IMG/VR virus record: IMGVR_UViG_3300022741_000070
Location: 1 to 47,725 of that record
Reading direction: 5' to 3' (one strand)
DNA: 47,725 nt
Source of the DNA: a virus
Lineage: Duplodnaviria > Caudoviricetes
Made by a program: the position numbers and the translations under genes
Notes under the pieces: generated by a model
Seen by the model: only the letters and a program-made list of their open reading frames with translations
The model's database searches: none
What the model was told of the DNA's origin: nothing
Shown here: positions 1,443-18,034 of the stretch, piece by piece
Layout: each line of letters starts with the position of its first letter
Position numbering within the stretch: position 1 is the first letter of the stretch

Positions 1443-1445
1443 GCA

Positions 1446-2643: not shown

Positions 2644-2656
2644 CTCTGCTCTCCTC

Positions 2657-3222: not shown

Positions 3223-3227
3223 CTCGC

Positions 3228-3578: not shown

Positions 3579-3608
3579 CTGGCTAGCCCTCCTTGAGCGT
3601 CCACGCGG

Positions 3609-3923
3609 TCACCCGACGGGCGCCTCCTTGATGTTGACCTGCGCCCCCTCGGGGAAGGGGTACGGGGCGGGGAGGCCCGGCGCGAACGGCCGGCCCAGCC
3701 CCTTGAGGACAGCGAGCTCGTGCTCGAGTCGACGGATCTTGGCGAGCGCGTCCTCGAGTTCGGCGATAACGCTCGACAGCGCCACCTCGGTCAGGACGGT
3801 GAACCCGCGGCGGTAGGGCGACGCGTCGGCGAGGACCGCGACCTCCCCCTCGCGCGGGCGCAGCGGCACGCCGGTCGACCTGGCCCGCATGAACGACCGA
3901 GCCTGCTCCAGGGCCGCGGTCAC
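3609..3923 (-). CDS. Hypothetical protein with coiled coil
   Basis: GTGA-coupled start at 3923. Confidence 0.6.
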   Translation of the reverse strand: MTAALEQARSFMRARSTGVPLRPREGEVAVLADASPYRRGFTVLTEVALSSVIAELEDALAKIRRLEHELAVLKGLGRPFAPGLPAPYPFPEGAQVNIKEAPVG

Positions 3924-4240
3924 GAGCCGCTCCAGGCGGGCACGAGGCCCGACGTCGGACGCCGCCGCAGGTTCTGCGCCAGCGCGACGGCGCGCATGGT
4001 GAGCTCGGGAGCGAAGGGCGCCCGCTTGCGCCCCTCCCCCTCGATCGCGTACTGGCGCGGGCCGACCTCGCCGTCCATGCGACGAGCCATCTCGCGCGCC
4101 TCGTGGCACCTGGCGCACTCGGCGCCGAGTCCGTCGTGCTGGGCCGGGTCGCGGTTGAAGTCCCTCGGGTCCTTCACCTCGCCGCACGTGAAGCAGAACT
4201 TGCCCGGCAGTGCGGTCTCGATGATCGTGCGGATGCTCAC
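3920..4240 (-). CDS. Zn-finger protein (CxxC...CxxC)
   Basis: KFCFTCGEVK..F..DGL..ECARC pattern; coupled start. Confidence 0.65.
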   Translation of the reverse strand: MSIRTIIETALPGKFCFTCGEVKDPRDFNRDPAQHDGLGAECARCHEAREMARRMDGEVGPRQYAIEGEGRKRAPFAPELTMRAVALAQNLRRRPTSGLVPAWSGS

Positions 4241-4506
4241 GCGACCACCCCCGCTCGGGTGTTGTACTCGCGTCGGCTCATCTCGGTCAGGTGCCAGCCG
4301 CCGCACCCGCCGTCGCAGGGGTAGACCCTCGACTCCAGCTTGATGCCACGACGAGACCCGCGGGCGTCACCCCGGCGGAGGCGATCGGTCTGCGCCTTGC
4401 CGAGCATCCGCTCGGCAGCCTGTCGCGTCGGGTAGCTGCGCTTCCCCGTCGTCGGGCAGCGCAGGTAGGTCAGACGACTCATGCTCTTGGTGCTCCTCTC
4501 GGTCAT
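4237..4506 (-). CDS. Small basic Cys/His phage protein
   Basis: C..GKRSY..YPC..CGGWHLT pattern common in actinophage hypotheticals. Confidence 0.7.
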   Translation of the reverse strand: MTERSTKSMSRLTYLRCPTTGKRSYPTRQAAERMLGKAQTDRLRRGDARGSRRGIKLESRVYPCDGGCGGWHLTEMSRREYNTRAGVVA

Positions 4507-4994
4507 GCGATCAGCGCCTCCTCGATCTCTCTCGGAGGCACCACGTACTCGCGGCAGCCGCAGTTGCCGACGATGCAGCCGGGGCGTCGCGCCCGCGGCC
4601 ACCGGTGGGCGGGCTCCGCGTGGTTGCAGTTCCCGCACGGGCGCTCGATCAGCCCCTCCTGCGCGAGCAGGTAGTCCGACCGGGCGCCGATCCCCTGGAT
4701 CTCCAGGACCGTCGCGCGCCCAACCAGCGCCAGCGTGTTGCTCTCGATCGCCTTCATCGCCGCGCCCTCGGTCGCGAACATCCCGTAGATGCCGTACGGC
4801 GTGGCGCCGCCCCCGTCGTGAACCGCGATCGCATACCAGGTGCGGCGCGACAGGGCGTGCAGCGCGAGCGAGATCGCCTTGCGGGCCATCTGCTTGGCGC
4901 TGTCGAACTCGTCGCGCTCCAGCGCCTCGGCGAGCTCTGCGATCTCGTGGGCCCGCGGCGCGACCGCGGGCATCTTGTACTGGTCCAGATTCAT
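4503..4994 (-). CDS. Hypothetical protein with C-terminal Cys/His cluster
   Basis: 163 aa ORF; CGNCNH..H..C..CGC; ATGA coupling. Confidence 0.7.
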   Translation of the reverse strand: MNLDQYKMPAVAPRAHEIAELAEALERDEFDSAKQMARKAISLALHALSRRTWYAIAVHDGGGATPYGIYGMFATEGAAMKAIESNTLALVGRATVLEIQGIGARSDYLLAQEGLIERPCGNCNHAEPAHRWPRARRPGCIVGNCGCREYVVPPREIEEALIA

Positions 4995-5003
4995 TTACCC
5001 ACC
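4992..5003 (-). promoter_or_regulatory. Operator/stoperator site GGTGGGTAAATG
   Basis: Matches genome-wide polar 12-mer; overlaps ATG of the 4503-4994 gene. Confidence 0.65.
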
Positions 5004-5006
5004 CAT

Positions 5007-5043
5007 GCCGGGCGCTGCCGTGGAGTAGTCGGCAGCGCCCGGC
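5007..5043. terminator. Intergenic GC hairpin (terminator or RNA stabiliser)
   Basis: 14-bp perfect inverted repeat GCCGGGCGCTGCCG. Confidence 0.55.
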
Positions 5044-5049
5044 TCCTTG

Positions 5050-5493
5050 TCACTCGTTGATGTAGGTCACGGCCAGGATGGGGAACGGCGCGGTCCTCGA
5101 GTCGACGAAGTCGGGACCACTCAGGCGCCGGACGCGCCGCGACCCCCCGTCGTCGAGGGCGACGACCCCCTCGCTGCCGGACAGCGAGCGCACGAGCGTG
5201 CCGAGCGGCAGGGCCTCGAGCCCCTCGCGCGAGTCGACGTAGGTGAACTCCTCGTCGGCGGTCGGCGGCGGGGTCCAGGCGGGCGCCGAGTAGGGGGTCA
5301 GGCGCGAGCCGGTGGGCTCCGGCCAGGCGTCCGGGTCGATGAGCCTGGCCCAGCCGACGAGCTCCGCCAGGTCGCGGTTCGGGTCGAGCTGTCTCAGGAT
5401 CACGAGCCCCGCGAAGCGGCGGTTGGTCGCCTCCTCGCTCTCCTCGCTGGCGATGATGTTGGTCATACTGTCGTTGCCTCCAGTCTGTGTCAT
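5050..5493 (-). CDS. Hypothetical protein (possibly leaderless; alternative start 5466)
   Basis: 147 aa ORF directly downstream of a predicted promoter. Confidence 0.7.
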   Translation of the reverse strand: MTQTGGNDSMTNIIASEESEEATNRRFAGLVILRQLDPNRDLAELVGWARLIDPDAWPEPTGSRLTPYSAPAWTPPPTADEEFTYVDSREGLEALPLGTLVRSLSGSEGVVALDDGGSRRVRRLSGPDFVDSRTAPFPILAVTYINE

Positions 5494-5500
5494 GGGCGCG

Positions 5501-5530
5501 AGTCTAGCTGCACTTACACACCGACGTCAA
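5501..5530 (-). promoter_or_regulatory. SigA-type promoter TTGACG-N18-TAGACT with operator GGTGTGTAAGTG (5511-5522) in the spacer
   Basis: Near-consensus -35/-10 and the repeated 12-mer between them. Confidence 0.75.
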
Positions 5531-6165
5531 GCGTTGATGCGCGCTACCTCCAACGCCGCCGCCTGCAGGTCGTCGATCGTGCCGACGTTCAGCACCAGGT
5601 GGGCGAAGCCTCCGAAGTCGTCGAGCTCGGTCTCGGACGCGTGCGCCGCCGCCTCCGGCAACAGCGCGTCGCCACCCTCCGGGCGCTCGATGCGCACGAC
5701 GATGCCGCCCGCGGCGATGACCGCCTCGGCCTCGTTGCGGTAGCGCACGTCCGTGATGACGACCGGGCCCTCGATCTCGGCGGCGCGGCGCATGGCGGCG
5801 TCGAGCCAGGTCGTGCGCCCGAGCACCTCGCGCACGCCGTCGCCCAGGCGGATCAGCGTCCGCCGCAGCTCGCCGTCGATGGTCTCGGTCGGGTGGGACT
5901 TGATGCCCTCCCAGCCGACGGCGTCGTGCAGGTCTGCCAGGCGCACCGGCGCGAGATCCGGCCACGGCCCGCCGCAGCAGTCCGGGTCGCCGCACGAGGT
6001 GTCTCGGTCGACGACGTCGATGACGGGGTCGAGCTTGAGCGCGAGCTCTCGCAGCGGATCGGCGAACGCCACTCGCGTGTAGCCCGCTCCCTGAACGAGC
6101 GCCTCGGCGAAGGTGTCCTTGCCCGAGCGGGCCTTGCCCGACAGGCCGATGATGTTCGTTGCCAC
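5527..6165 (-). CDS. Deoxynucleoside monophosphate kinase
   Basis: IIGLSGKARSGKDT P-loop, FADPLR, ITDVRYRNE, HASET motifs; GGAGG RBS before GTG 6165. Confidence 0.9.
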   Translation of the reverse strand: MATNIIGLSGKARSGKDTFAEALVQGAGYTRVAFADPLRELALKLDPVIDVVDRDTSCGDPDCCGGPWPDLAPVRLADLHDAVGWEGIKSHPTETIDGELRRTLIRLGDGVREVLGRTTWLDAAMRRAAEIEGPVVITDVRYRNEAEAVIAAGGIVVRIERPEGGDALLPEAAAHASETELDDFGGFAHLVLNVGTIDDLQAAALEVARINA

Positions 6166-6230
6166 TGTGTGTTGTCCTCCTATTGGTTGTCGCTTGATCT
6201 TGCTCACGTCGATGCCCTTGTGCGTCTCGC

Positions 6231-6902
6231 TCACGCGACACCCCTCCCCTCGCGGCGGTCCCCGCTGGAGAGCCTGATCTCGCAAGCTAGAGCCTCCCGC
6301 CCCTCCCGCTCGGCCTCATCCTGCCCGTAGAAGCCCCAGGCGGACTCGATCACCCTCCAGTCCTCGTACATCCCGCGCGAGACGGGCTTCCCGTCGGACT
6401 TGCGCACGGTGGTGGTGGTCACCACGGTCGCCTCCTCCAGGACGTAGCCGTAGACCTCACCGTCGGCCCACAGCTCGTACTCCTCGACCTCGCCCCGCGT
6501 GGTCTCGGTGCCCATCGTGGCGCCCCACCGTTCGCACAGCTCCGGGTCGGAGTACCAGAGAATGCCGTCGCTGATGACGACACCGAGGTCCCACCCGTGG
6601 AAGATGCGTCCCCACCGGGCGAAGGCGGTCGCCGCGTCGAAGGGGCGAAGCGCGTGCCCGTTGTGCCAGTGTGCACGCTCGTCGGTCGCCTCGAAGAAGT
6701 AGCGGATCGCCTCGGCGAGGGAGTTGTGGTTGACGACCCCACCATCCCAGGTCTGGCCGGGCTCCATCTTGCGCCAGTCGCGCGAGGGGAGGACGACGTA
6801 GGACGTGCAGATGTTGTCCCGGTCGAGTCGCGGATTGACCGCGTCGGAGTCTTGCTCGATGCGCAGGCGGTAGTCCTGCGTCGCCGCGACGATGTCGGTC
6901 AT
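6231..6902 (-). CDS. Hypothetical protein (223 aa)
   Basis: RBS and ATG at 6902; W.DGEVYGY..ESAWGFYG motif typical of phage early hypotheticals. Confidence 0.75.
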   Translation of the reverse strand: MTDIVAATQDYRLRIEQDSDAVNPRLDRDNICTSYVVLPSRDWRKMEPGQTWDGGVVNHNSLAEAIRYFFEATDERAHWHNGHALRPFDAATAFARWGRIFHGWDLGVVISDGILWYSDPELCERWGATMGTETTRGEVEEYELWADGEVYGYVLEEATVVTTTTVRKSDGKPVSRGMYEDWRVIESAWGFYGQDEAEREGREALACEIRLSSGDRREGRGVA

Positions 6903-6904
6903 GC

Positions 6905-7771
6905 TCAGTCCTCCCTCTCGGTAGTCAGGTTCGTGCTCCACGATGCGACCGTCACGCGCCCGAACTTGCGCAGCGCCTTGTACTGGTCCGTCCACAACCG
7001 CCGCGTTGCGTCGTCCACTCCCCATAGCTTCCGTCGGCGGTTCACCTCGGCCATGAGGGTGTCGAGAGTCCCCGTCCAGCAGCCCACAACGAGGACGTGC
7101 CCGTCCGCGTCCTCCGTGCGTGCGAGCGTCGCGGTGACACCTTCGGACCCGATCGGGCCGATCGAGATCCAATGCGCCCGCGACTCCACCCGCGCCTCGC
7201 CGGACACCTGCGCGTTGCCGTACACCTGCGCCTCGCCGGACACCTGCGCGTTGCCGTACACCCACGCGTTGCCGTACACCCGCGCGTTGCCGGACACCCA
7301 CGCGTTGCCGTACACCTGCGCCTCGCCGGACACCCACGCGTTGCCGTACACCCGCGCGTTGCCGGACACCTGCGCGTTGCCGTACACCCACGCGTTGCCG
7401 TACACCCGCGCGTTGCCGGACACCCACGCGTTGCCGTACACCTGCGCCTCGCCGGACACCCACGCGTTGCCGTACACCCGCGCGTTGCCGGACACCCACG
7501 CGTTGCCGTACACCTGCGCCTCGCCGGACACCTGCGCGTTGCCGGACACCTGCGCGTTGCCGGACACCTGCGCGTTGCCGTACACCCACGCGTTGCCGTA
7601 CACCCGCGCGTTGCCGTCGCGCAGGGTCAGGCTCTCGACCCAACCGCCCAGGTCGCCCGCCTTGACCCCCGCGCTCGGAATGTCCACGAGCGCACGGATC
7701 CGATGGACCGTCACACCCTGCGCGTTGACCTTCGACTCTCCGGTCAACTCGATCTTGATGTCCATGCTCAC
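6905..7771 (-). CDS. Hexapeptide-repeat (left-handed beta-helix) protein
   Basis: RIRAL..GDLGGWVE N-terminus followed by 24 (Y/S)G(N/E)A(R/W/Q)V units. Confidence 0.85.
   Translation of the reverse strand: MSMDIKIELTGESKVNAQGVTVHRIRALVDIPSAGVKAGDLGGWVESLTLRDGNARVYGNAWVYGNAQVSGNAQVSGNAQVSGEAQVYGNAWVSGNARVYGNAWVSGEAQVYGNAWVSGNARVYGNAWVYGNAQVSGNARVYGNAWVSGEAQVYGNAWVSGNARVYGNAWVYGNAQVSGEAQVYGNAQVSGEARVESRAHWISIGPIGSEGVTATLARTEDADGHVLVVGCWTGTLDTLMAEVNRRRKLWGVDDATRRLWTDQYKALRKFGRVTVASWSTNLTTERED
7187..7618 (-). repeat. Coding tandem array of 24 x 18-bp units
   Basis: Near-identical 18-mers such as GCCGTACACCCACGCGTT and GCCGGACACCTGCGCGTT on the + strand. Confidence 0.9.
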
Positions 7772-7774
7772 TCC

Positions 7775-8224
7775 TCAGCCCTCCTTGTCGTAGTAGGCGT
7801 CAGGCCCGGCCCACACCTCGCGGTCGTGGGAGTGCGCGCCCGCGTGCATGTTGGTGAGGACGCAGTCGGCGTCTCGACCGCACCCGAACAGATCCGTCGC
7901 GTCGCGCGCGTCGGCCACCTCGCGGCGCCCGTCCGAGCGCAGTCGCGTCATCCCCGCGCCCTCCGCATGGGCGGCACGGACGAACGACCGGTATGCGTGC
8001 ACGGCGAACGTGCCCAGGTCCGTCGCGACCGTCGTGGTGACCAGGCTGAACGGCGGCGCGAGCGGCGTCTCTCGAGTCGCGACACTCTCGACCGTCGCGA
8101 ACGCGAAGGGCAGGGCGTCGAACTCGTAGCCGATGAACTCGCTCAGCACGGGCTCCAGGTCGATCACCATGCCCGGCGCCAGGTCGCGCGCGTCGACCTC
8201 GTCGTATCGCACGGGGGCGGTCAC
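7775..8224 (-). CDS. Hypothetical protein (possible in-frame fusion of two small genes)
   Basis: GTGA-coupled start; internal GGAGGG-N-ATG near 7950. Confidence 0.6.
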   Translation of the reverse strand: MTAPVRYDEVDARDLAPGMVIDLEPVLSEFIGYEFDALPFAFATVESVATRETPLAPPFSLVTTTVATDLGTFAVHAYRSFVRAAHAEGAGMTRLRSDGRREVADARDATDLFGCGRDADCVLTNMHAGAHSHDREVWAGPDAYYDKEG

Positions 8225-8691
8225 AGCTTCCACACCAGCTTCCAGTCTGCGGGGATGGCCCGCTCCTCGCCGCACGCGTAGCAGACCAGGCGCTCGCCGG
8301 ACCCCTCGTCGGTCACGTCGGCGTCGAAGGCGTCGACGATGATGTCGCCCTCGTCGAAGTCGACCTCGACGCCATGCCACACCTTCGCGTAGCCCTCCTC
8401 GACCACCTCCCAGGCGTGCTCGTGGCCGGTCTCGTCCTCGCGCTCGACCGGCCGCGCGAGCTCCTCCGCGCCTGCCACCTCCCGCTCGATGGCCCGCCGC
8501 AGCGCGTCCGCGCGGATCGCCTGGCCCTTCGCCCGCTCGACGTCCTCGGCGGTGTAGTAGCCCTCCGCGTCGCGAAGGATCGACTCGGCCAGGCGCTCTC
8601 GCTCCGCCTCCGCGTCGGCGATGACCCCCATGAGGGTCTCGACCTCCTCGGCGGTCAGCTGCAGTGTGATCCCGTGCGTGTTCACGGCCAT
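8221..8691 (-). CDS. Hypothetical acidic protein with C-terminal CxxC
   Basis: AGGAG RBS after mini-tRNA and hairpin. Confidence 0.75.
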   Translation of the reverse strand: MAVNTHGITLQLTAEEVETLMGVIADAEAERERLAESILRDAEGYYTAEDVERAKGQAIRADALRRAIEREVAGAEELARPVEREDETGHEHAWEVVEEGYAKVWHGVEVDFDEGDIIVDAFDADVTDEGSGERLVCYACGEERAIPADWKLVWKL

Positions 8692-8731
8692 GCTCGTCTC
8701 CTGTCTCTCGTTTGTGGGGTTCCTACAAAGC

Positions 8732-8778
8732 GCCCGGCCGAGGACTCGAACCTCGGCGCGCTCCACCTGGAGCCGGGC
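8732..8778 (-). ncRNA. Mini-tRNA-like element A (acceptor stem + GGU mini D-loop + T-arm, no anticodon arm)
   Basis: GCCCGG CTCC-AGGT-GGAG CGCG CCGAGG-TTCGAGT-CCTCGG CCGGGC. Confidence 0.75.
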
Positions 8779-8785
8779 CACCACC

Positions 8786-9787
8786 TCAGACGGTGGCGAG
8801 CAGCGCGAGCGTCGCGCGGTCGAGCTTGTCGATGCCGCCCGTGATCGCACGCTCGGCGTTGCGGTCGGCGCGGCTCGCGCCCCTCACCGCCTGCCCGTGA
8901 TGCGTGTACGTGTTGACCGCGGCCAGCACGCCGTACGCCGTCCCCGACCAGGGCGACACGCGCTCGTCGTGACGCCACAGGCGGTTGAGTTCGCCCGCCT
9001 TGTTGTCGGCCATCGTCCGCGCCTGCTTGGACTCGGACTCGGTCTCGGTGTACGCCCGCACGAACCGGGACCACCGCTCGGCGCTCACGACCTCCGCCGT
9101 CAGCCGGTCGACCTGGGCGGCGAACTCATCCGCCACGCCGTGCACGATGCCCAGCGCCTGCCGCACGTCGGCGAGCTTGGACAGCGAGTTGACCGAGTGC
9201 TTGATCCGCACCCGCTCGGTCTCCTCGGACAGCGCCGCGCTCAGGGTGTTGTCGCAGACGACCACCTGAACGCCGACCTGGTACGTCGTCGCCATCGAGC
9301 CGTCCATCGACGTCGCCGCCGTGAGGAACGGGCGGTACTCGACGCCCTCGACGCTCAGGGTGTCCTCCATCTCGACCTGAACCCATGCCTGGGCCCCGTT
9401 GCGCAGGAGCCCGGCCGATCCGATCGCGAGGTCCGCGTCGAGCAGGGACTCGACGTTGCGCACGAGCCAGTCGTCGTACCCGTGCACGCGGTAGCCCTGC
9501 TTGAAGATGCCGAGGATGTCGCCGGTGTCGGACCGCATCACGGCCTTGCGTGTCGGGTCCGTCATCGTGAGCACGCCGGTCGGCGTGAGCGCGGTCGCCG
9601 TGACCTCGCCCTCGACGGCGTCCCAGCCGAACAGCCGTCGGCGCACGTCCTCGACGGGGATGGCCCCGGAGTAGTGGTTGGGCTCGGCGCCCTGCTCCGA
9701 CTCGCGGTAGTGCCACGCCTTGCCGCGCTTGTCGGTGTAGCCGATCAGGGTGTTCGTGTTCAGGTGCTGCATGGTCTCTCGGGACAT
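8786..9787 (-). CDS. DUF932-family phage/plasmid protein
   Basis: SAGLLRNGAQAW, TSMDGS, VVVCDNTL, HSVNS, GTAYG..AVN.Y..H motifs. Confidence 0.85.
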   Translation of the reverse strand: MSRETMQHLNTNTLIGYTDKRGKAWHYRESEQGAEPNHYSGAIPVEDVRRRLFGWDAVEGEVTATALTPTGVLTMTDPTRKAVMRSDTGDILGIFKQGYRVHGYDDWLVRNVESLLDADLAIGSAGLLRNGAQAWVQVEMEDTLSVEGVEYRPFLTAATSMDGSMATTYQVGVQVVVCDNTLSAALSEETERVRIKHSVNSLSKLADVRQALGIVHGVADEFAAQVDRLTAEVVSAERWSRFVRAYTETESESKQARTMADNKAGELNRLWRHDERVSPWSGTAYGVLAAVNTYTHHGQAVRGASRADRNAERAITGGIDKLDRATLALLATV

Positions 9788-9823
9788 GTTGCCTACCTCC
9801 TAGAGTTCGTGTGAATTGGTGTC

Positions 9824-9852
9824 ATCCTACGCGTCATTTACACGCCGCGCAA
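9824..9852 (-). promoter_or_regulatory. SigA-type promoter TTGCGC-N17-TAGGAT with operator GGCGTGTAAATG (9835-9846) in the spacer
   Basis: Consensus spacing; repeated 12-mer; GGAGG RBS downstream. Confidence 0.75.
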
Positions 9853-9857
9853 GCAGG

Positions 9858-10184
9858 TCAGTAGATCGCGGCCGACAGTCCCATCGCCGCATCTGCGACC
9901 GCGTCGAGGTCCGGCTCGTCGCGGGCCTCCAGGAGCGAGATCCGGTTGATGCGCACGCCGCTGCCGGTCGTCACGACCAGGCCGTCGAGGTCCCCGGAGT
10001 CAGCCCCGCGCGGCGCGTGGTACTCGACGGCGTCCTCGACCTCGCCTGCGATGCGGTCGAGAAGCGTCTCGTCGTCACACCCGCCGATGACGTACGCCTC
10101 CAGCATCACCTCGACGGTCGCCACCACCCGCCTTGCACCGCTCCGCGCCAGCGCCTCGCGCATCTCGCGCCCGTCGCTCGTCAT
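9858..10184 (-). CDS. Hypothetical protein
   Basis: Coupled start overlapping upstream stop. Confidence 0.65.
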   Translation of the reverse strand: MTSDGREMREALARSGARRVVATVEVMLEAYVIGGCDDETLLDRIAGEVEDAVEYHAPRGADSGDLDGLVVTTGSGVRINRISLLEARDEPDLDAVADAAMGLSAAIY

Positions 10185-10423
10185 CACTCGCCCGCTCCCA
10201 TCTGCTCGTCCATCACGTAGACCACGCCGTCGATGACGACGAAGCTTGAGCCCCGCCCGTCGCCCTGCCTGTCGGCGTCCCAGCGGCAGTCGATGCCGTC
10301 CGACCCGTCGTCCGTCGAGCACGGCGGCAGGTCGACCCTGACGCCCAGCGTCAGGACGAGCGCGAAGATGCCGACGAGCATGGCGATCACGCCCGCGATG
10401 ACGACGTTCTCGACGTCGCGCAT
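10184..10423 (-). CDS. Small membrane-anchored protein
   Basis: N-terminal hydrophobic helix, then LPPC..D..C.WDA..GDG.G.SF motif. Confidence 0.7.
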   Translation of the reverse strand: MRDVENVVIAGVIAMLVGIFALVLTLGVRVDLPPCSTDDGSDGIDCRWDADRQGDGRGSSFVVIDGVVYVMDEQMGAGE

Positions 10424-10875
10424 CACAGTGCACCTCCCCACGTCACGCGCGCCGCGCTCGCCTTGCGCGTGACGTCCCAGGGGATCTCGCCCATGCGTCG
10501 CGCGCGGTCGCGGCGAAACGCGACCTGGCTCCCGCCTTCGAGCACGTCCTCGACGGCGACCTCCCACTCGACGATGCGGTACCCGCCAGCCTCCAGGTCG
10601 TCCGCGACGTGGCCGAACCACTGCTCCAGCGAGGCCAGGTCGGCGAAGCCGAACCGGTACTGGTCACGCACGCCCCGCGACACCTCGCGCCATTCGGGCA
10701 CGTCCATCTCGGGGACCGGGTGGTGCCGACTGTGGCCGTCGTCAACCTGCACCCACGCCTCGCTCCGCACCACCACGCGCGGCCCCGTGGGGTCGTCGCC
10801 GCAGTTGGGGTTGTACGGTCCGCCGCCGTGCGGCAACTCCACCCGCAGCACGCGGCACGTCGTAGCCTCGACCAT
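10423..10875 (-). CDS. Hypothetical protein
   Basis: RVE..GPY..HP.P..FGF..L..WF motif; follows mini-tRNA B. Confidence 0.75.
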   Translation of the reverse strand: MVEATTCRVLRVELPHGGGPYNPNCGDDPTGPRVVVRSEAWVQVDDGHSRHHPVPEMDVPEWREVSRGVRDQYRFGFADLASLEQWFGHVADDLEAGGYRIVEWEVAVEDVLEGGSQVAFRRDRARRMGEIPWDVTRKASAARVTWGGAL

Positions 10876-10920
10876 CTGTCCGTCCCTATCTCTCAGGGGC
10901 GCCGCTCGTCGGCGCCGCGC

Positions 10921-10968
10921 GTCCCTACTCGGGGTCGAACCGAGTCGCTACCCAAACCGGGGAGGGAC
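10921..10968 (-). ncRNA. Mini-tRNA-like element B
   Basis: GTCCCT CCC-CGGTTT-GGG TAGCG ACTCGG-TTCGACC-CCGAGT AGGGAC. Confidence 0.75.
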
Positions 10969-10976
10969 TGCCGATG

Positions 10977-11078
10977 TCACTCGGCGTTGCCGTTCACGTC
11001 GTCACCGATGGCGCCGACGAGCGCGAGCCACAGGGCGACCAGCACCCACAGGCTCAGGCCGAACGCGAGGCCGCTCAC
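10977..11078 (-). CDS. 33-aa hydrophobic micro-protein
   Basis: VSGLAFGLSLWVLVALWLALVGAIGDDVNGNAE; GTGA-coupled; not in the ORF track. Confidence 0.55.
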   Translation of the reverse strand: MSGLAFGLSLWVLVALWLALVGAIGDDVNGNAE

Positions 11079-11179
11079 AGGCCGACCGTCGCGGCGTACT
11101 TCGCGCGGCGCGCGTCGCGACGTCGCAGCGTCTCGGCGCGACCGGCCGCGGTGGACTTGTGCGTGATGTGCTTCGACAT
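11075..11179 (-). CDS. 34-aa basic micro-protein
   Basis: MSKHITHKSTAAGRAETLRRRDARRAKYAATVGL with GGGAG RBS just after the hammerhead. Confidence 0.6.
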   Translation of the reverse strand: MSKHITHKSTAAGRAETLRRRDARRAKYAATVGL

Positions 11180-11202
11180 GCTGTGTCTCCCATCTCTCTC
11201 GG

Positions 11203-11263
11203 CAGGCTCGTCAGGTCCGGGATGCCAGCCCGGACGACGCCCCTTGTGGGGGCGTTTCGCCTA
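11203..11263 (-). ncRNA. Type II hammerhead ribozyme
   Basis: TAGGC GAAA C GCCCC-CACAA-GGGGC GTC^ GTCCGGG-CTGGCAT-CCCGGAC CTGACGA GCCTG; intact CUGANGA/GAAA/NUH core and all three stems paired. Confidence 0.9.
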
Positions 11264-11557
11264 GTCCTCGTCGTCGACCTCGACCCACACCTCGGCGGAG
11301 CCGTCGAGCCATGCGGCCAGCGCCTCGGCCGCTGCGAGGTCGCCATCGAACCGATCGCACGCGTCGCAGCGTTCGATGCCGTAGTCGGTCGGACCGTTGC
11401 CCGTCGGCGCGAAGTAGCCGCCGTGGCAGTCGCCGCACGTGCCCTCGCCCATTGCCCGGACGTGCGGACCGGGGTCGATGACCTCGCCCGTCGGCCACTG
11501 CAACCACGGGTCGCCGCCGTACTCGACCGCGGTGCCGTCGTACCGTCGCGCGCTCAC
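11261..11557 (-). CDS. Zn-finger hypothetical protein
   Basis: CGDC...CDAC; TAG stop lies in hammerhead stem II. Confidence 0.7.
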   Translation of the reverse strand: MSARRYDGTAVEYGGDPWLQWPTGEVIDPGPHVRAMGEGTCGDCHGGYFAPTGNGPTDYGIERCDACDRFDGDLAAAEALAAWLDGSAEVWVEVDDED

Positions 11558-11868
11558 TCGGCCGCTCCCACGGCCAGCGCCCACGTCGCGAGGACGTCGA
11601 GGTCACGCCCCTCGCCGACCGTCTCGGCCGCGGGTCGCGTCGCCGCGATGTCGTCGAGCAGGTCCGTGAGGTCGACCGCCTGCCCGCGGGACAGCCGTCC
11701 CAGCACCTCGCCCGTGCCGCTCGGCGATGCCCACCAAGACGCGATGGCGCGTGCCGTGCCGCCGTGAATCTCGCGCCCGCTGTCGCGCCAGACAGCCTCG
11801 ATGTCCGCGACCGCGTCGGTCGTCATCGACATCGAGTCGACGACCATGATCGAGCCCGCCGCGTTCAC
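11554..11868 (-). CDS. Hypothetical protein
   Basis: GTGA coupling at both ends. Confidence 0.7.
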   Translation of the reverse strand: MNAAGSIMVVDSMSMTTDAVADIEAVWRDSGREIHGGTARAIASWWASPSGTGEVLGRLSRGQAVDLTDLLDDIAATRPAAETVGEGRDLDVLATWALAVGAAE

Positions 11869-12233
11869 AGTCGCACCGTCCGAACGCCGCCGTGCGGACC
11901 GATCTCGAGCATGTGCGTGCACGTGACGTACGGGTCGGATTCAAGCTCCCACAACGTCGCGCCCGTGCCGACCTTGGCAAGCAGGATGTGCGACCCGACC
12001 GCGACCGCCGGGCAGATGAGGTTGCGACCCTGCTCGCCGGGCACGGGGCGCGCGTTGCCGTCCGCGTCGTCGACCCACTCGGCCGCAAGCGGCACGCCGC
12101 CGAGCACGTAGCCGACCCGGTAGCGCTCCGCGAGCACGCGCGCCGCGTGGCCGATGCTGTCGAACATCTCGGCGTCAATCGCCCACTCGCCATGCGAGTA
12201 GCCGGGTCCGCCGTACCACAGTCCCACGTACAT
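11865..12233 (-). CDS. Hypothetical protein
   Basis: GAAGGA RBS after mini-tRNA C and hairpin. Confidence 0.75.
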   Translation of the reverse strand: MYVGLWYGGPGYSHGEWAIDAEMFDSIGHAARVLAERYRVGYVLGGVPLAAEWVDDADGNARPVPGEQGRNLICPAVAVGSHILLAKVGTGATLWELESDPYVTCTHMLEIGPHGGVRTVRL

Positions 12234-12277
12234 GTTCGTTCCTTCCATCCGCGATGCCGGACCGTCCGGCACCAAGC

Positions 12278-12324
12278 GGCGCGCCGCGGGATCGAACCGC
12301 GCTCGCCCCCGACCGGGGCGCGCC
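12278..12324 (-). ncRNA. Mini-tRNA-like element C
   Basis: GGCGCGC CCC-GGTC-GGG GGCGAG CGCGG-TTCGATC-CCGCG GCGCGCC (7+5 bp). Confidence 0.75.
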
Positions 12325-12345
12325 TGACGCACGCGTGCGTCCCTT

Positions 12346-12855
12346 TCACACCTCGCGACGGCTGACCAGCGCCGAGTGCCCGACGACGAGCGCGATGGCG
12401 TCCTGCCCGAACTCGTCGGCGAGGATCGCGAGCGCGTCGGCGAGACCCTCCAGGTCCCACTCCGCCGAGTCGCCGAACGCGAACACGTAGGCCGAGTCCT
12501 CGCGGACCGTCACGCCCGCATCGTCGACCCACTCGCCCGAGCCGTAGTGCGGCTCGTCGACATGCGTGCCGTCGCCCGTGAGCGCGCCCACGAGCCCGTG
12601 CACGAGCCCGACGAGACGACGCCACCGCCGCTCCGGCATCGGCTCGTCGCCCACGTTCCGGCCGATGTTGACCTGCACCGTCGCGGCCGTCGTCGGCGCG
12701 ACGTTGGTCGGCACGGGCGGACGGGTGAGCGTCGCGGCCGAGATCCGCAAGTAGGCGATGCGCTCCGACTGCGCGAGCGTGTCCCACGCGGCACCGTCCG
12801 CGTACGCCATGTGCCGCGCGTTCGCCACGACGTCCGCGCCCGTGATGTTGTCCAT
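12346..12855 (-). CDS. Hypothetical protein, possible SAM lyase (SAMase)-like fold
   Basis: G.GEW....G..VREDS and LA.EFGQDAI motifs resemble T3-type SAM lyases. Confidence 0.5.
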   Translation of the reverse strand: MDNITGADVVANARHMAYADGAAWDTLAQSERIAYLRISAATLTRPPVPTNVAPTTAATVQVNIGRNVGDEPMPERRWRRLVGLVHGLVGALTGDGTHVDEPHYGSGEWVDDAGVTVREDSAYVFAFGDSAEWDLEGLADALAILADEFGQDAIALVVGHSALVSRREV

Positions 12856-12902
12856 GTTGTGCTTCCTTCCAACGGTCCCGATGCACGTTGCGTCGGGTGA
12901 GT

Positions 12903-12947
12903 GCCCGTGCGCGGATTCGAACCGCACCGTCGCCACCTAGGACGGGC
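12903..12947 (-). ncRNA. Mini-tRNA-like element D
   Basis: GCCCGT CC-TAGGT-GG CGACG GTGCGG-TTCGAAT-CCGCGC ACGGGC. Confidence 0.75.
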
Positions 12948-12954
12948 TGCCGGT

Positions 12955-13155
12955 TCACTGCCCGGCATAGACGTGAATGCCCTCGCGCCAATCCGCGACG
13001 CCATCGCGCCACACCTGCACAACGAGATGAGGCGTGGGGATCGGCTGGACGATGGCGCGCGCTTCCACCATTGCGCGCGCCCTGGCGAGCGCGGCCGCGC
13101 GGTCGACCGTCGCGATGACGACCCCGGTGTGGTCGGTAAGGGTGAAGATGTCCAT
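12955..13155 (-). CDS. Small hypothetical protein, first gene of the early arm
   Basis: GAAAGG RBS before ATG 13155. Confidence 0.7.
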   Translation of the reverse strand: MDIFTLTDHTGVVIATVDRAAALARARAMVEARAIVQPIPTPHLVVQVWRDGVADWREGIHVYAGQ

Positions 13156-13197
13156 TTTGCTACCTTTCACTTGTCCCAAGCGCTAGACACTGGGACG

Positions 13198-13852
13198 ATC
13201 CCCGTGCCAAGGATCGAACCGTCGCGCTCGCGCTGCTCCGATTCGCCGAACCATCCGCGAGCGCCGAACGCGCGGCCGTCACGCGCGCCTTCAAAGAATG
13301 CGCCGAATCCCATTTCTTGCTCCCGATTGCGTGTGGGTGAATGCTGACGAGTGGTCGCGCCCGGTTCCGAACCGTTGTCACCCGACCCGCGCATGGCTCG
13401 TCCGGCGGAATGCTTGGCTACAGATACCCGATGGCGACCATCGTTGCCAGTACCCTGCCAATTCCGCCGCGCCGCTGTGCGCGTGGCTAGTGAAGCGCGA
13501 CCTGACCGCATTGCAGCGGTCCGTGTGTGTGGGTAGGGACGGATCGCTAATCCGCGCGGCTCACCATGTTTGGGTGCCCTACGTGCCGCATTGAATCACT
13601 GGCATTTGCGCCGACGCGTCATGCGCTTATGCCTGCCGGGGGATGCTCACCGCCGGGTGATTCGGCGGGTCGTGGCATTGTGCTCACCCCTTGCTTGAAC
13701 CGCGCCGTTGCCGACGCGTCGTTTGGTGACGCGGATTTGCACCGCGGGGGTGACTTCCAGTGACCGCGGATTCCCATCCGCGGGTGTGTCTCGCCGAACC
13801 GGCGCCGCGTGCGAGCGGGCTCCCGATCCGGGTCGATCCGTCCAACCCGATG
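13198..13852 (-). ncRNA. Candidate ~650-nt structured noncoding RNA / leader
   Basis: No credible ORF; dense nested helices; T-loop-like GGTTCGATCC at the 3' end. Confidence 0.6.
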
Positions 13853-13857
13853 GCTAG

Positions 13858-13886
13858 AACCTATGCCGTGCCGCACGCTTGCGCTA
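13858..13886 (-). promoter_or_regulatory. Putative early leftward promoter TAGCGC-N17-TAGGTT
   Basis: Resembles the TTGCGC-N17-TAGGAT promoter at 9824-9852. Confidence 0.45.
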
Positions 13887-13957
13887 GTCGCGCCGCTGTA
13901 CTCACCCGCCGCCGAGCGCGTTTCCGCAGATCAACGGCCTAAAACGAGTTTCGCGAC

Positions 13958-13976
13958 CGTCTCACAATGTGAGACG
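13958..13976. promoter_or_regulatory. Palindrome CGTCTCACA-A-TGTGAGACG, putative protein-binding site
   Basis: Perfect 9-bp inverted repeat upstream of the early promoter. Confidence 0.45.
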
Positions 13977-14042
13977 CCCATGGGCGGTTTGCCCGGTTCC
14001 TCGCGCGCGCGTGCATGGCGCGCATGGCGCGCGTGACGCGCG

Positions 14043-14125
14043 CTGCCCTGCCCCTGCCCTGCCCCTGCCCTGCCCCTGCCCTGCCCCTGCCCCTGCCCCT
14101 GCCCCTGCCCTGCCCCTGTCCCTGC
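14043..14125. repeat. (TGCCC/TGCCCC)n microsatellite, G-tract array on the minus strand
   Basis: About 15 consecutive C3-C4 runs. Confidence 0.9.
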
Positions 14126-14157
14126 GGGTGAGGTTTGCGTTTCACCCGGCCTGGGCA

Positions 14158-14187
14158 TTGACGCGGCGGCGGTGGTGGGGGTATAAC
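14158..14187 (+). promoter_or_regulatory. Putative rightward promoter TTGACG-N18-TATAAC
   Basis: Near-consensus hexamers pointing toward the HNH/tRNA/terminase genes. Confidence 0.45.
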
Positions 14188-14597
14188 CCGCGCGCGTGTG
14201 ATTCGCGGACCGCTGCGTGTTGGCAGCTACGGTCGCGCCACCATCACAAGGTCAATCATCGGCGGCGGCGAGAGGTGCGTTGCTCGAGCTCGTCCATCGC
14301 TACAGCGCCCTGCGACTGTGCAGGTCACAGCGCATGTGGGGCCCATGAGGGCCCCCAGGTGCCGGGGCTTGCGGGCCCCGAAGGGGGCCCGGCAGAAGCA
14401 GGAGCTAGCGGCCAGCGTTCGCCACTGTTCTGGGTGTGACGCAGTTCACCCGCTGGAGATGAAGCAGGCTTGCCTCGTGCTGCGTAGATACAGAGTGTAG
14501 AGCTCTAGAACGTAGCGGCTGAGCCCCCGAAGGGGGCCCCAACCGTAGCGACTACTCCTAGGAGTAGAGCCCCCTTCGGGGGCCGCTTCCGCTGCGA

Positions 14598-14636
14598 CTA
14601 CGTCTAGGAGCTACGTCTAGGAGCTACGTCTAGGCG
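14598..14636 (+). repeat. 3 x 13-bp tandem repeat CTACGTCTAGG(A/C)G
   Basis: Read directly; lies in the presumed left-end noncoding region. Confidence 0.85.
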
Positions 14637-14802
14637 TAGCTCGCCGCCGCAGCACTCAGACCAATGACTCCTCCGGGTCGGCAGGGCCAACCGCCCTCAC
14701 GCCGCCGGAGCTTCTTCCACCGCGGGGCCCGGAGGCGACCACCCATGCTTCGAGCGCGTTACCAGGGCCCTGCGGTGGCCCCCTGCGCCCAGCCTGCCGA
14801 CG

Positions 14803-15117
14803 ATGCCAGGCTGGGCCGGTAGTGACCGGCGCCAGCGCCTGCCTCCCGATTGGGAGCGGACGCGGCGCCGAGTCCTGATCCGAGACGGCCGCCGTTGCAC
14901 GGCTGTCTCACCCGCCGGCGAGCGGTGCCCTGAGCCCGCGACCGAGGTCGACCACATCCACCCCGGCGATGACCACTCGATGCAGAACCTCCGGGCCCTC
15001 TGCTCGTGGCACCACCAGCGGAAGTCGGCCGCAGAAGGCGCGGAGGCTCAAGCTCGAGCCCGCCGCCGGCACGCGCGGAAGTTCCTACGAGTCGAGGCTC
15101 ACCCCGGCCTCCTCTGA
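14803..15117 (+). CDS. HNH endonuclease (terminase-associated type)
   Basis: W..TR.RVL.RD..RC..ATEVDHI.PGDDHS..NLRALC.WHH..KS. Confidence 0.9.
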   Translation: MPGWAGSDRRQRLPPDWERTRRRVLIRDGRRCTAVSPAGERCPEPATEVDHIHPGDDHSMQNLRALCSWHHQRKSAAEGAEAQARARRRHARKFLRVEAHPGLL

Positions 15118-15233
15118 GGGCTCCGCCGCGGGGGCTGTAGAGCGTCGCCCACGAGGCGCTCCTCACGCTCCAGTCCCCGCCAAGCCTCCCCCTCCCCCTC
15201 CCCCACGCTGGCGCGACTGCGGAGGGGGGTCTA

Positions 15234-15303
15234 GCGCCTGAGCTCATGGTGAGCGCCGCCGGCTCCAACCCGGCGGCTGCGGGTTCGACTCCCGCCAGGT
15301 GTG
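15234..15303 (+). tRNA. tRNA-Trp(CCA), atypical D-arm
   Basis: Anticodon arm GCCGG-CTCCAAC-CCGGC; T-arm GCGGG-TTCGACT-CCCGC; acceptor with two G-U pairs. Confidence 0.65.
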
Positions 15304-15314
15304 CACAGTCTCGG

Positions 15315-15385
15315 TCCCCCGTAGCTGAGTGGTTTAGCCGCCGACTCTTAATCGGCAGAGGCAGGTTCGATTCCTGCCGGGGGAA
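15315..15385 (+). tRNA. tRNA-Lys(CTT)
   Basis: Full cloverleaf TCCCCCG/CGGGGGA; GCCGA-CTCTTAA-TCGGC. Confidence 0.9.
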
Positions 15386-15539
15386 CCGCGCTCGATTGAT
15401 GGCTGCCGCTAGTACATCGAGAGCCCTCGGCGGAGGCGGCATCTGCACGGAGGGTGGGGAAAGGCATCGCCCCAAGGAGGTTAGCCCCTAATGCCTCGCG
15501 CCCTCTCTGGGTACGCGAAAAGGCGAAGGATGCCCACAG

Positions 15540-15612
15540 TGGCCTGTAGCTCAGATGGCAGAGCAGCGGACTGTTAATCCGCCAAGCGCAGGTTCGAGTC
15601 CTGCCAGGCCAG
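15540..15612 (+). tRNA. tRNA-Asn(GTT)
   Basis: Full cloverleaf TGGCCTG/CAGGCCA; GCGGA-CTGTTAA-TCCGC. Confidence 0.92.
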
Positions 15613-15650
15613 CACGCACATAGCCCAAATCCGCCGAGGAGGCGCCCCAG

Positions 15651-15839
15651 ATGCAGACCGTTGAGATGGCCGCGGTGACCGAGAGCACCATCACCATCGC
15701 CCTCGAGGACGGCCGCGAGGTCACCGGCGTCCCGCGTGCTGGCGACGACGGCCGCTACCGACTCCACACCGGCCGTCGCGGCCGCCCCATCGTCATCGAC
15801 GAGAAGCGCGCCGAGACCGCCCGCATCGTCATCGTCTGA
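15651..15839 (+). CDS. Small hypothetical protein
   Basis: GAGGAGG RBS; 62 aa. Confidence 0.75.
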   Translation: MQTVEMAAVTESTITIALEDGREVTGVPRAGDDGRYRLHTGRRGRPIVIDEKRAETARIVIV

Positions 15840-15923
15840 AAATCCGAATAGCGCGCTAGGCGCCGCGCGATCGGTCGTCCAAGGCGCGCTCCGCGCGCCC
15901 GAGCCCCCGAGGAGGTGGCGCAA

Positions 15924-16355
15924 GTGCCTGCGCACACGAAGCGTGAAGATGAGCTCCAGCGCCCGCGCTCGCGGAAGGGCGGGGACGCTGGCAAGGCTGC
16001 GACGCGACTCGACCTGCTCCCGGTCAGCATTCCGCGCGCCGACCCGAACTGGCACCCGATGGCCCTCCGCATCTGGAACGGCCTTAAGACGTCCGGCCAG
16101 CGCGAGCTGCTCCAGAACAGCGATTGGGCCCTGGCCTTCTCCCTGCTCGACGACCTCACCCACTACAAGAACAGCCAGCGCCGCTCCCCCGAGATGCTCA
16201 AGGCCATCCTCGGCGGTCTCGAGAAGCTCATGCTCACCGAGACCGACCGCCGCAAGATCCGCGTCGAGCTACACGCTCCGCAGGTCGAGGAGCGTGGCGC
16301 CGACCTCGTCGCGATCGACGGCTACCGCGCCGCGCTCGCCGCTGGCGGGGCGTGA
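15924..16355 (+). CDS. Terminase small subunit
   Basis: P.ADPNWHP.A..W..L..SGQ...SDWA..L.LTE.DRR..R.EL pattern; precedes TerL; start 15915 also possible. Confidence 0.75.
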   Translation: MPAHTKREDELQRPRSRKGGDAGKAATRLDLLPVSIPRADPNWHPMALRIWNGLKTSGQRELLQNSDWALAFSLLDDLTHYKNSQRRSPEMLKAILGGLEKLMLTETDRRKIRVELHAPQVEERGADLVAIDGYRAALAAGGA

Positions 16356-18034
16356 GCGCCGGCGAGAGCCTGATCCCCTTCCGAGACGTCCCTGACGACG
16401 AGCTCACCGACGAGCAGATCAGGCAGAAGTACGCACCCGTGTGCATCGGCCCGACCTGGAAGCGCGACGCCGCCGGCGGTTGGCTCCTCCCCGAGCGGAC
16501 GCTCGGCTGGGAAATCGCCGGCTGGATGGCGAAGTGGCTGGGCGGGCCGGACGGCTCCGACAGCTTCACGATGACGCTCGAGCAGCTCCGCTTCGTCCTG
16601 TGGTGGTACGCGGTCGACGAGCACGGCGAGTTCATCTACCGGACCGGCGTCCTGCAGCGGCTCAAGGGCTGGGGCAAGGACCCGCTCGCGGCGGCCCTGT
16701 GCCTCGTCGAGCTCGTGGGCCCCTCGCGCTTCTCGCACTTCGGCGCCGACGGCAAGCCGGTCGGCAAGGCGCACCCAGCCGCGTTCGTGCAGATCGCGGC
16801 GGTGAACCAGGAGCAGACGCAGAACACCACGACGATGTTCGCGCTCCTGATGACCGACCGCTTCATGGCCGAGTACCGCGTCGAGGCGGGCAAGGAGCTC
16901 ATCTACGCGATGGGCGGCAAGGTTCGGCTCAAGGCCGTGACCAGCTCGCCTCGCGCGCTCGAGGGCGGGCGCTCGACGTTCATCATCCTGAACGAGACGC
17001 ACCACTGGATTCGCGGCAACAACGGAATCCAGATGTTCGAGACCATCGACGGCAACGCGACCAAGATGGACGGCCGCTACCTCGCGATCACGAACGCGTA
17101 CATGCCCGGCGAGGACTCCGTCGCCGAGCGCCAGCGCGACCAGTGGGACAAGATCGACGAGGGCCGCGCGGCCGACGTCGGCCTGCTCTACGACAGCCTC
17201 GAGGCGCCCGAGCACACGCCGCTCGACCCCGCGATCCTCCCGACGATCATCGAGCTCGTCCGCGGCGACGCGGTCTGGCTCAAGATCGACGCGATCATGA
17301 AGTCGGTCCTGTCGACGACCATGAGCCCGGCGCGCTCGCGCCGCATGTGGCTGAATCAGGTCGTCGCCGAGGCTGACTCGCTGTTCTCGCCGGCCGACTG
17401 GAAGGTGCTCGAGCGGGAGGGGCTGGAGCTCCGCCCTGGCGACCGGATCGTGCTCGGCTTCGACGGTGGCAAGTCCGACGACGCCACGGCGCTCGTCGCG
17501 ATCCGGGTCAAGGACTTCTTCATCAAGCCGCTGCAGGTCTGGGAGAAGCCCGACGGGCCCGCCGGCGACGGCTGGGAGGTGGACCGGGCCGAGGTCGACT
17601 CGATGGTGCGAGACGCGTTCCGCGTCTACGACGTCGTCGCGTTCTACGCCGACGTCGCGCTCTGGGAGTCGTACATCGACACCTGGGCGCTCGACTACGG
17701 CGAGAAGCTCGCCGTGAAGTCGACGGCCCGCAACCCGATCGCCTGGGACATGCGCCGCTCCGAGAAGGAGACGACGCACGCGCACGAGGCGTTCGTCAGC
17801 GCCATCCTCAACGGCCAGCCTGTCCACGACGGCGACCCGCTCCTGCGCCGCCACGTGATGAACGTCAAGCGCAAGGTCAACAACTACGGCATCTCGTTCC
17901 GCAAGGCGCACCGAGAGAGCCCCCGAAAGATCGACGCCTACGCGGCGGCCTTCCTCGCCTTCCTCGCCCGTCGCGACTACCTCGCGAGCTCGGGGAAGCA
18001 GCGTCAGCGCACGGGCCGCGGCTACTTCCTCTGA
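16352..18034 (+). CDS. Terminase large subunit
   Basis: LQRLKGWGKDP Walker A, ILNETHHW Walker B, LGFDGGKSDDAT nuclease, KIDA. Confidence 0.95.
   Translation: MSAGESLIPFRDVPDDELTDEQIRQKYAPVCIGPTWKRDAAGGWLLPERTLGWEIAGWMAKWLGGPDGSDSFTMTLEQLRFVLWWYAVDEHGEFIYRTGVLQRLKGWGKDPLAAALCLVELVGPSRFSHFGADGKPVGKAHPAAFVQIAAVNQEQTQNTTTMFALLMTDRFMAEYRVEAGKELIYAMGGKVRLKAVTSSPRALEGGRSTFIILNETHHWIRGNNGIQMFETIDGNATKMDGRYLAITNAYMPGEDSVAERQRDQWDKIDEGRAADVGLLYDSLEAPEHTPLDPAILPTIIELVRGDAVWLKIDAIMKSVLSTTMSPARSRRMWLNQVVAEADSLFSPADWKVLEREGLELRPGDRIVLGFDGGKSDDATALVAIRVKDFFIKPLQVWEKPDGPAGDGWEVDRAEVDSMVRDAFRVYDVVAFYADVALWESYIDTWALDYGEKLAVKSTARNPIAWDMRRSEKETTHAHEAFVSAILNGQPVHDGDPLLRRHVMNVKRKVNNYGISFRKAHRESPRKIDAYAAAFLAFLARRDYLASSGKQRQRTGRGYFL

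Follow-up and report, generated by a model that had tools for sequence, protein, structure and literature searches.

What a self-cleaving ribozyme does for a phage has been an open question since 2011, and it is raised anew by a type II hammerhead lying between two genes of a provirus. The DNA analysed here, hereafter the window, is a whole 47.7-kb provirus record (47,725 nucleotides). It encodes a serine integrase, its small genes form a leftward block and its terminase, portal and capsid genes a rightward one, and it has three tRNAs. Judging from the layout of related Streptomyces phages, the leftward operon would be the early region, and it holds five intergenic RNA elements, namely the hammerhead and four tRNA-like elements devoid of an anticodon arm. 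The operon and the genes around the hammerhead are as follows.

1442-13155, minus strand: leftward operon, in a temperate siphovirus-like actinobacterial provirus, of small genes that include a dNMP kinase and phrog_1221
1396-1442, minus strand: intrinsic-terminator-like hairpin closing the leftward operon at its distal end
11261-11557, minus strand: upstream gene of 98 aa, with its TAG at 11263-11261 and a GC3 of 0.89 for the open frame
11191-11187, minus strand: Shine-Dalgarno-like GGGAG preceding the 34-aa gene
11179-11075, minus strand: basic 34-aa gene, starting 56 nt past the predicted hammerhead cut
10977-11078, minus strand: hydrophobic 33-aa gene with a GC3 of 0.97, which overlaps the 34-aa gene at its stop

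The hairpin at 1442-1396 is the sole minus-strand terminator site detected within 1300-14800, which is consistent with long transcripts. A PHROG search with the 98-aa upstream gene returned no family, and a homolog of this gene is present in L006 (54% over 83 aa, E 2e-28). The two downstream genes gave weak matches, the 34-aa gene to phrog_4275 (E 3.2e-5) and the 33-aa gene to phrog_32780 (E 7.4e-5). When an HMM of 7 Streptomyces-phage members of phrog_4275 was run against 871 window segments, the 34-aa gene was the top match (E 4.5e-4).

An earlier note, made from the letters of this DNA, had described a type II hammerhead with a loop I-tail pseudoknot, and every motif that it named is present on the minus strand, with the cut predicted at the same place. 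The parts of the ribozyme are as follows.

11197-11263, minus strand: type II hammerhead motif (Rfam RF02276 match at 11262-11197)
11258-11255, minus strand: GAAA
11255-11249/11243-11237, minus strand: stem III, 7 bp (A-U, C-G, then GCCCC/GGGGC), with loop CACAA
11238-11236, minus strand: GUC cleavage triplet, with the predicted cut between 11236 and 11235
11235-11229/11221-11215, minus strand: stem I, 7 bp, with loop CUGGCAU
11214-11208, minus strand: core CUGACGA, in the correct register and with all core bases intact
11261-11259/11207-11205, minus strand: stem II, 3 bp, open (GGC/GCC; the G10.1-C11.1 pair is G11207-C11259)
11200-11227, minus strand: predicted pseudoknot between loop I and the 3' tail (UGGCA at 11227-11223 with UGCCG at 11204-11200; 5 possible pairs)

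The Rfam search that the earlier note had suggested confirmed this identity: RF02276 (Hammerhead_II) matched at 53 bits against a gathering cut-off of 37 (E 3.3e-8), and the same search on control genomes gave a hammerhead match in 0 of 14. The core pattern occurs once in the window, whereas 0.04 occurrences are expected from shuffles. The motif has the features that define RF02276, that is, a CUGANGA/GAAA/NUH core, closed stems I and III and an open stem II.

Two parts of the proposed structure turned out to compete. The earlier note had drawn an open 5-bp stem II (UAGGC/GCCUG) together with the 5-bp pseudoknot, and both use U11204 and G11203, so that they are mutually exclusive. We examined pairing in 217 distinct hammerheads gathered with a descriptor whose search pattern biases the sample towards this subtype. 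Of these relatives, 210 have position 3 of stem II paired, 62 have position 4 paired and 38 position 5, which argues that stem II is the 3-bp GGC/GCC helix, with the pseudoknot following directly; the 5-bp stem II was rejected on these counts and on the clash with the pseudoknot. The pseudoknot itself held up. Its duplex in the window hammerhead is worth -5.7 kcal/mol, and about 70% of the 217 relatives have a pseudoknot helix of at least 4 bp starting 3-4 nt past the core. Loop I can form a helix of at least 4 bp with its own tail in 0.825 of the relatives versus 0.72 with a shuffled partner (maximum 0.779), a modest margin. With a 3-bp stem II, the claim that the TAG of the upstream gene lies within stem II is true only of its last G (11261), the first base of the stem; the other two stop-codon bases lie outside.

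Type II hammerheads with a loop I-tail pseudoknot, a short stem II and gene-flanking sites in prophages were published in 2011 (Perreault et al., PMC3088659), and the window ribozyme is the same as the RF02276 ribozymes of that paper in stems, core, pseudoknot and prophage intergenic place. Taken by itself, it is an unremarkable representative of a known family. The context is what differs from the published cases (PMC3088659), given that a single hammerhead stands here among four tRNA-like elements, which the earlier note had missed, and that sister phages use a single kind of element throughout.

The four elements are as follows.

12899-12947, minus strand: element A, 6-bp acceptor and 6-bp T stem, T-loop UUCGAAU, short GGU-loop insert, then ACUC, with no anticodon arm
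12274-12324, minus strand: element B, 7-bp acceptor and 5-bp T stem, then GCUU; found with the 12-bp descriptor
10917-10968, minus strand: element C, 6+6 bp, then GCGC; closes the two-gene unit opened by the hammerhead
8728-8778, minus strand: element D, 7+5 bp, then GCUU

Each consists of a 12-bp stack of acceptor and T stem with R-C directly after it, and a GGU-containing insert of 14-17 nt between the acceptor and the T stem replaces the D and anticodon arms. All four are placed in the same way, 7-21 nt past a stop codon and 87-93 nt ahead of the next start. The 12-bp descriptor finds 4 elements in the window, compared with a mean of 0.01 and a maximum of 1 in 100 resamples. The T-loop pattern occurs 9 times versus 0.6 expected; 3 of these occurrences are in tRNAs, 2 elsewhere and 4 in the leftward operon, on the minus strand. 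Plain folding z-scores are not significant for three of the four elements, and that of element D is -2.26.

Neither ARAGORN nor Rfam calls elements A-D, and both find only the three tRNAs at 15234-15613. These genes, on the plus strand, are Trp(CCA), Lys(CTT) and Asn(GTT), the Trp gene being low-scoring (34 bits). Elements A-D lack the anticodon arm and the full cloverleaf of tRNA (RF00005), and they have the T-loop on a 12-bp acceptor/T stack that characterizes RNase P substrates. The Rfam C4 and tmRNA families gave no match to them; mascRNA-menRNA (RF01684) had no match in the window up to E 5, and a scan of the window up to the same E value revealed no other ribozyme or Rfam family. A comparison with other phages recovers some of the elements: model R1, built from 61 phage elements without any window sequence, ranks element D first in the window (E 1e-4) and element A second (E 0.0025), both above the real tRNAs; elements B and C give weak matches that are not significant (E 2.3 and 3.8, respectively). 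Over 34 nt, element D shares 94% identity with an element lying between genes of mycobacteriophage Rockstar, and BLAST with element C gave no useful match.

To define the motif beyond the window, we assembled a set of 82 distinct elements, part of which was selected for ACT by the search pattern; the strict 12-bp detector missed the 11-bp form found in phages, and a widened version was used for this set. A stack of 6+5 bp (11 bp) is the commonest form (66 of 82). G occupies +1 in 80 of the 82 elements, R-C follows the stack in 78 and RCC in none, and the base after R-C, in the window four as in the 82, is U or G, never C. No selection for ACT was applied in phiScoe10, Endor2 and Yosif, and their distinct elements all end in ACU (25/25). 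For the alignment, 61 of the 82 elements (6+5 bp, 11-nt insert) were used and 21 excluded, the window's four among them. The stems of the aligned elements pair by construction, and an unselected pair, between columns 13 and 19, holds in 61 of 61 elements with four pair types. The conserved bases of the motif are those of the tRNA elbow (a GG loop and a UUCRA loop) together with G+1 and R-C.

The motif is widespread. A query with one element returned 142 phage records and 775 places, of which 113 records are from phages of Streptomyces, 25 of Mycobacterium and 4 of Gordonia, duplicates included. In Konstantine (L271), a cluster H mycobacteriophage, the descriptor finds 7 elements in one gene block, and at 4800-10800 of this genome a tRNA-like element is accompanied in most gaps by a hairpin and a common leader. 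A variant T-loop, UGCAAG, was seen in elements at 11749-11800 and 12809-12860 of L078 and near 4030 of L118; R1 detects the L078 pair and the GTTCRA descriptor does not, and descriptor counts are thus lower bounds. An annotated 'tRNA-Arg' of Endor2 (L116), at 7379-7461, overlaps an anticodon-less element and a gene end, and is probably a mis-call.

The motif is absent from Rfam 15, where its best matches are to mascRNA (RF01684) and remain below threshold (26.5 and 26.3 bits versus 42.5, in two phages). No description of it was found in the literature searched, mostly open full texts, including the available parts of PMC5737381, PMC5311408, PMC7302621, PMC5712189 and PMC10690425. The main text of the phiScoe paper contains neither 'tRNA' nor 'ribozyme' (PMC10276819). 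The motif may be listed, unnamed, among the 10,006 candidate viral RNAs of PMC10690425.

The relationship between the two kinds of element became apparent from the phages in which they recur. BLAST with the hammerhead retrieved Streptomyces phages of the Arquatrovirinae, and BLAST with element D retrieved other Arquatrovirinae along with Rockstar. We compared 11 cultured Streptomyces phages of this subfamily, chosen by their match to either the hammerhead or the element query; given that choice, what is informative is that the other kind is missing. Hammerhead matches in the right arms number 9 in Andris, 9 in Daudau, 10 in VieEnRose and 8 in Amethyst (29 of these 36 above the cut-off), as well as 9 each in Thestral and Sentinel, and no tRNA-like elements were found in the right arms of these six phages. 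Conversely, phiScoe10 has 11 tRNA-like elements, Endor2 7, Yosif 9, Zemlya 7 and Aaronocolus 10, and no hammerheads were found in these five. Across the 11 phages, 85 of the 102 gaps of at least 55 nt hold a hammerhead or a tRNA-like element.

Furthermore, the two kinds occupy the same slots. Among the 38 gene families with at least 3 members, 8 are preceded by a hammerhead in one set of phages and by a tRNA-like element in another; they include an acetyltransferase with 60-75% identity across kinds and an Ocr-like gene with 32-61%. The phrog_4275 family, also one of the 8 and the one weakly matched by the 34-aa gene behind the window hammerhead, is found behind a hammerhead in five phages and behind a tRNA-like element in five, and the seven scanned Streptomyces-phage members match phrog_4275 strongly. 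Spacing to the next gene is likewise maintained: the hammerhead cut lies 56 nt from the start codon in the window, versus a median of 57 in 21 annotated relatives, and the 5' ends of the tRNA-like elements lie 87-93 nt from it in the window, versus a median of 88 (n=25). Mixed phages are represented by the window provirus, G001 (2 hammerheads and 1 element) and G002 (1 hammerhead and 2-3 elements). Neither kind was found in the near-complete relatives G003 (95%) and G004 (98%), the former of which carries the best homolog of the 98-aa upstream gene. Trees of the dNMP kinase and the acetyltransferase are compatible with one ancestral swap (p-AU 0.38 and 0.41), and the eight families may thus record one event. 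The Ocr-like tree (p-AU 0.03) was set aside, its Sentinel row being probably no homolog (branch 6.5; outside the gene family).

Other arrangements were also seen. Tandem hammerheads stand back to back, about 70 nt apart and with no gene between them, at 11000-11134 of L273, at 8287-8419 of L275 and at several IMG/VR loci. In FlowerPower (L117), a weak BLAST match, the gaps of the leftward block examined (10000-16700) contain neither a hammerhead nor a T-loop element; they carry repeated hairpins with GGGT/ACC-like flanking arms before a common ribosome-binding sequence, possibly a third kind of cassette.

Our reading of these observations, to which we give a probability of roughly 0.6, is that the hammerhead and the tRNA-like elements both cut a probably early leftward transcript into short mRNAs with protected 5' ends. 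The hammerhead would cleave itself within the long leftward message between 11236 and 11235, and the tRNA-like elements would be cut at G+1 by host RNase P, possibly also after the discriminator by RNase Z. Each cut would leave a downstream mRNA of one or two genes whose 5' end is sequestered in a helix, namely stem I following a 5'-OH for the hammerhead and the acceptor stem following a 5'-phosphate for a tRNA-like element; the hammerhead and element C together would release the two-gene unit for the 34-aa and 33-aa proteins. Decay that depends on the 5' end, by RNase E and RNase J, is established. A helix-locked end would shield the mRNA from it, and the gain for the phage would be that each unit decays at its own rate. 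In its wider form, which we consider only slightly better than an even bet, this reading holds that an anticodon-less mimic of the tRNA elbow recruits host RNase P/Z to dice early transcripts of actinophages, that it is interchangeable with hammerheads, that whole operons have been converted from one kind to the other, and that the present prophage is a mixed intermediate. The role in mRNA maturation that the earlier note had suggested is supported by the exchange of slots across phages. What is new here is the tRNA-like motif exchangeable with hammerheads; the hammerhead itself is of an already known kind.

Reduced tRNA-like elements have precedents. Transcript ends are made by RNase P and RNase Z at mascRNA/menRNA (RF01684), at the t-elements of plant mitochondria and in mitochondrial tRNA punctuation. 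The phage elements resemble these in being reduced and tRNA-like, but mascRNA/menRNA and t-elements are eukaryotic or organellar, and the phage motif is without any anticodon arm and far under the family cut-off. In the early operon of T7, intergenic RNase III sites let a host nuclease divide one early transcript; those sites are long irregular hairpins, unlike tRNA-elbow mimics or ribozymes. Among bacterial and phage RNAs, the non-tRNA substrates of RNase P (P1/P7 C4 antisense RNA, phage M3 RNA, tmRNA and polycistronic mRNAs; PMC11143913) are comparable, a tRNA-like shape having been proposed as the recruiter. Unlike them, the elements described here are 45-55 nt long, occur in 4-11 copies at gene junctions and are exchanged for ribozymes.

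For phage hammerheads, processing into operon- or gene-length mRNAs was already proposed in PMC3088659. That paper shows cleavage of three tandem arrays, reports activity of tandem prophage hammerheads both in vitro and in vivo, and notes a halovirus transcript whose 5' end lies within 3 nt of the hammerhead site. The GenBank-annotated hammerhead of haloviruses HF1/HF2 is 80% identical to that of the window over 57 nt. It precedes an early gene and has its cut site within 3 nt of that transcript end (PMC3088659), but belongs to an archaeal virus, has a variant core according to the same paper and stands at one site, with no tRNA-like partners reported.

The alternative that survives best, although we regard it as unlikely, is that only the hammerhead cuts, and that the tRNA-like elements are uncut elbow mimics which stabilise the message or bind a host factor, sharing the slot as another intergenic cassette. 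RNase P gauges a stack of 12 bp counted from the T-loop, base-pairs with RCCA and still acts when the D-loop is lost, and its substrates include phage C4 and M3 RNAs and mRNAs (PMC11143913); CCA is an antideterminant for RNase Z (PMC4919913). Against the RNase P rules, the commonest element has 11 bp rather than 12 and ends in ACU rather than ACC, and strong covariation, for its part, shows the fold and not the cut. However, the nearly invariant G+1 (80/82) and R-C (78/82) are features that processing enzymes read, and the either-or distribution across the 11 phages fits one shared job.

The other alternatives concern the hammerhead as much as its neighbours. The earlier note had proposed that cleavage is possibly modulated by terminating ribosomes, and in its full form this would make cleavage depend on whether the upstream gene is translated, with stem II kept open by the ribosome that terminates at the TAG. 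In a fold model, stem III and the core indeed cannot form if the stop region is held unpaired, and the TAG-GC-GAAA join of the window is repeated in relatives L041, L058 and L078, the last an extra case of a 2-nt stop distance. We scored the distance from the stop codon to G12 in the 167 of 229 distinct hammerheads with a callable upstream frame. The distance is 2 nt in the window, as in 3 of the 167 (the window element included), at most 4 nt in 27, at most 8 nt in 76 and more than 12 nt in 86, and part of the stop codon falls within stem II in 3 of the 167, one of them the window element. In four annotated phages, 36 hammerheads have stop distances of 3-274 nt, with 8 of 36 within 4 nt and 0 of 36 overlapping stem II. 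Closeness within 8 nt in 76 of 167 speaks for such a control, but short distances are expected anyway in gaps of 80-100 nt, the distance at the corresponding phrog_4275 slot is 3 to 8 nt in Daudau, Andris and Amethyst, and just one base of the stop codon is paired in the 3-bp stem II. With overlap in 3 of 167 relatives and more than 12 nt of separation in 86, a termination switch is unsupported as a selected feature, and we rate it as decidedly unlikely. A ribosome on the stop codon would at most block folding of the hammerhead briefly, without acting as a switch.

Less probable again is that both kinds are neutral or selfish repeats spread by recombination, the window hammerhead being a slow or decayed copy. 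Copies within one phage are alike, G003 and G004 do without either element, and the window hammerhead has a predicted competing fold; the last two points also weigh against our main reading, the competing fold in that it speaks against fast cleavage. In a pseudoknot-free model, its stem I forms with a probability of 0.12-0.13 in short constructs and 0.70 in long ones; the value of 0.13 in the minimal construct is the 13th lowest of 153 hammerheads (median 0.93), because CGUC, at the cut site, can form a helix with the core's GACG. Reaching the active fold takes 4.4-6.9 kcal/mol, with the pseudoknot (-5.7) left out, and the plain folding z-score of the hammerhead, -1.46, is not significant. Yet all core bases of this hammerhead are intact, and across phages the cores are fixed while the stems vary with compensation; moreover, the elements lie on a single strand, between genes and at a near-constant distance from start codons, which argues against neutral spread. 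Finally, that the tRNA-like motif is an undescribed self-cleaving ribozyme is highly improbable: it occupies hammerhead slots, and other ribozyme classes are found in such contexts, but its conserved bases are all accounted for by the tRNA elbow, G+1 and R-C, with no leftover cluster resembling a catalytic core.

We also considered whether cleavage would expose the ribosome-binding site of the 34-aa gene. In the pseudoknot-free model, making the ribosome-binding region accessible takes 8.3 kcal/mol in the uncut RNA and 9.0 kcal/mol in the cut one, so the site is not unmasked by cleavage in the model, and this candidate function was dropped for want of support.

If a substrate of a host enzyme replaces a ribozyme at the same genes, the selected property would be the cut together with the protected 5' end, rather than ribozyme chemistry, ligation or regulation. 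The reading of both kinds as cutters of the leftward transcript would also mean that a widespread RNA motif is missing from Rfam and that tRNA punctuation has a counterpart in bacterial viruses. Because cultured Streptomyces phages of both kinds are available (Daudau, Andris and Amethyst versus phiScoe10, Endor2 and Zemlya), the role of the hammerhead is testable.

Transcript sequences were sought in metatranscriptome run X6, where 0.83 of the words of 8600-13200 are present, as contigs only; one contig (11097-11528) crosses the predicted hammerhead cut and another (9014-11000) crosses element C, and since the tRNA and terminase region is covered to a similar depth, the library may contain DNA.

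Several other observations were made in the window. The gene at 6905-7765 (minus strand; phrog_7964, phrog_5070) contains long imperfect six-residue repeats of the type VYGNA(Q/W/R), and assemblies break at it. Between the two gene blocks, 13200-14800 is a long stretch with few coding signals, a tandem run of GGGGCA at about 14038-14133 and short repeats near 14600; it is likely the genome-end and promoter region. The motif GTGTAARTG has 13 matches in the window versus 3.1 expected, at 5511-5519 (minus strand), 9835-9843 (minus strand) and 38763-38771 (plus strand), plus ten with one mismatch. Two copies lie between promoter-like hexamers, at 5530-5501 and, by eye, near 9852-9824, and a similar motif is found 5' of several hammerheads in Andris and Daudau. 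GTGTAARTG is probably a site of the repressor/stoperator type, as reported for R4-like phages (PMC10276819).
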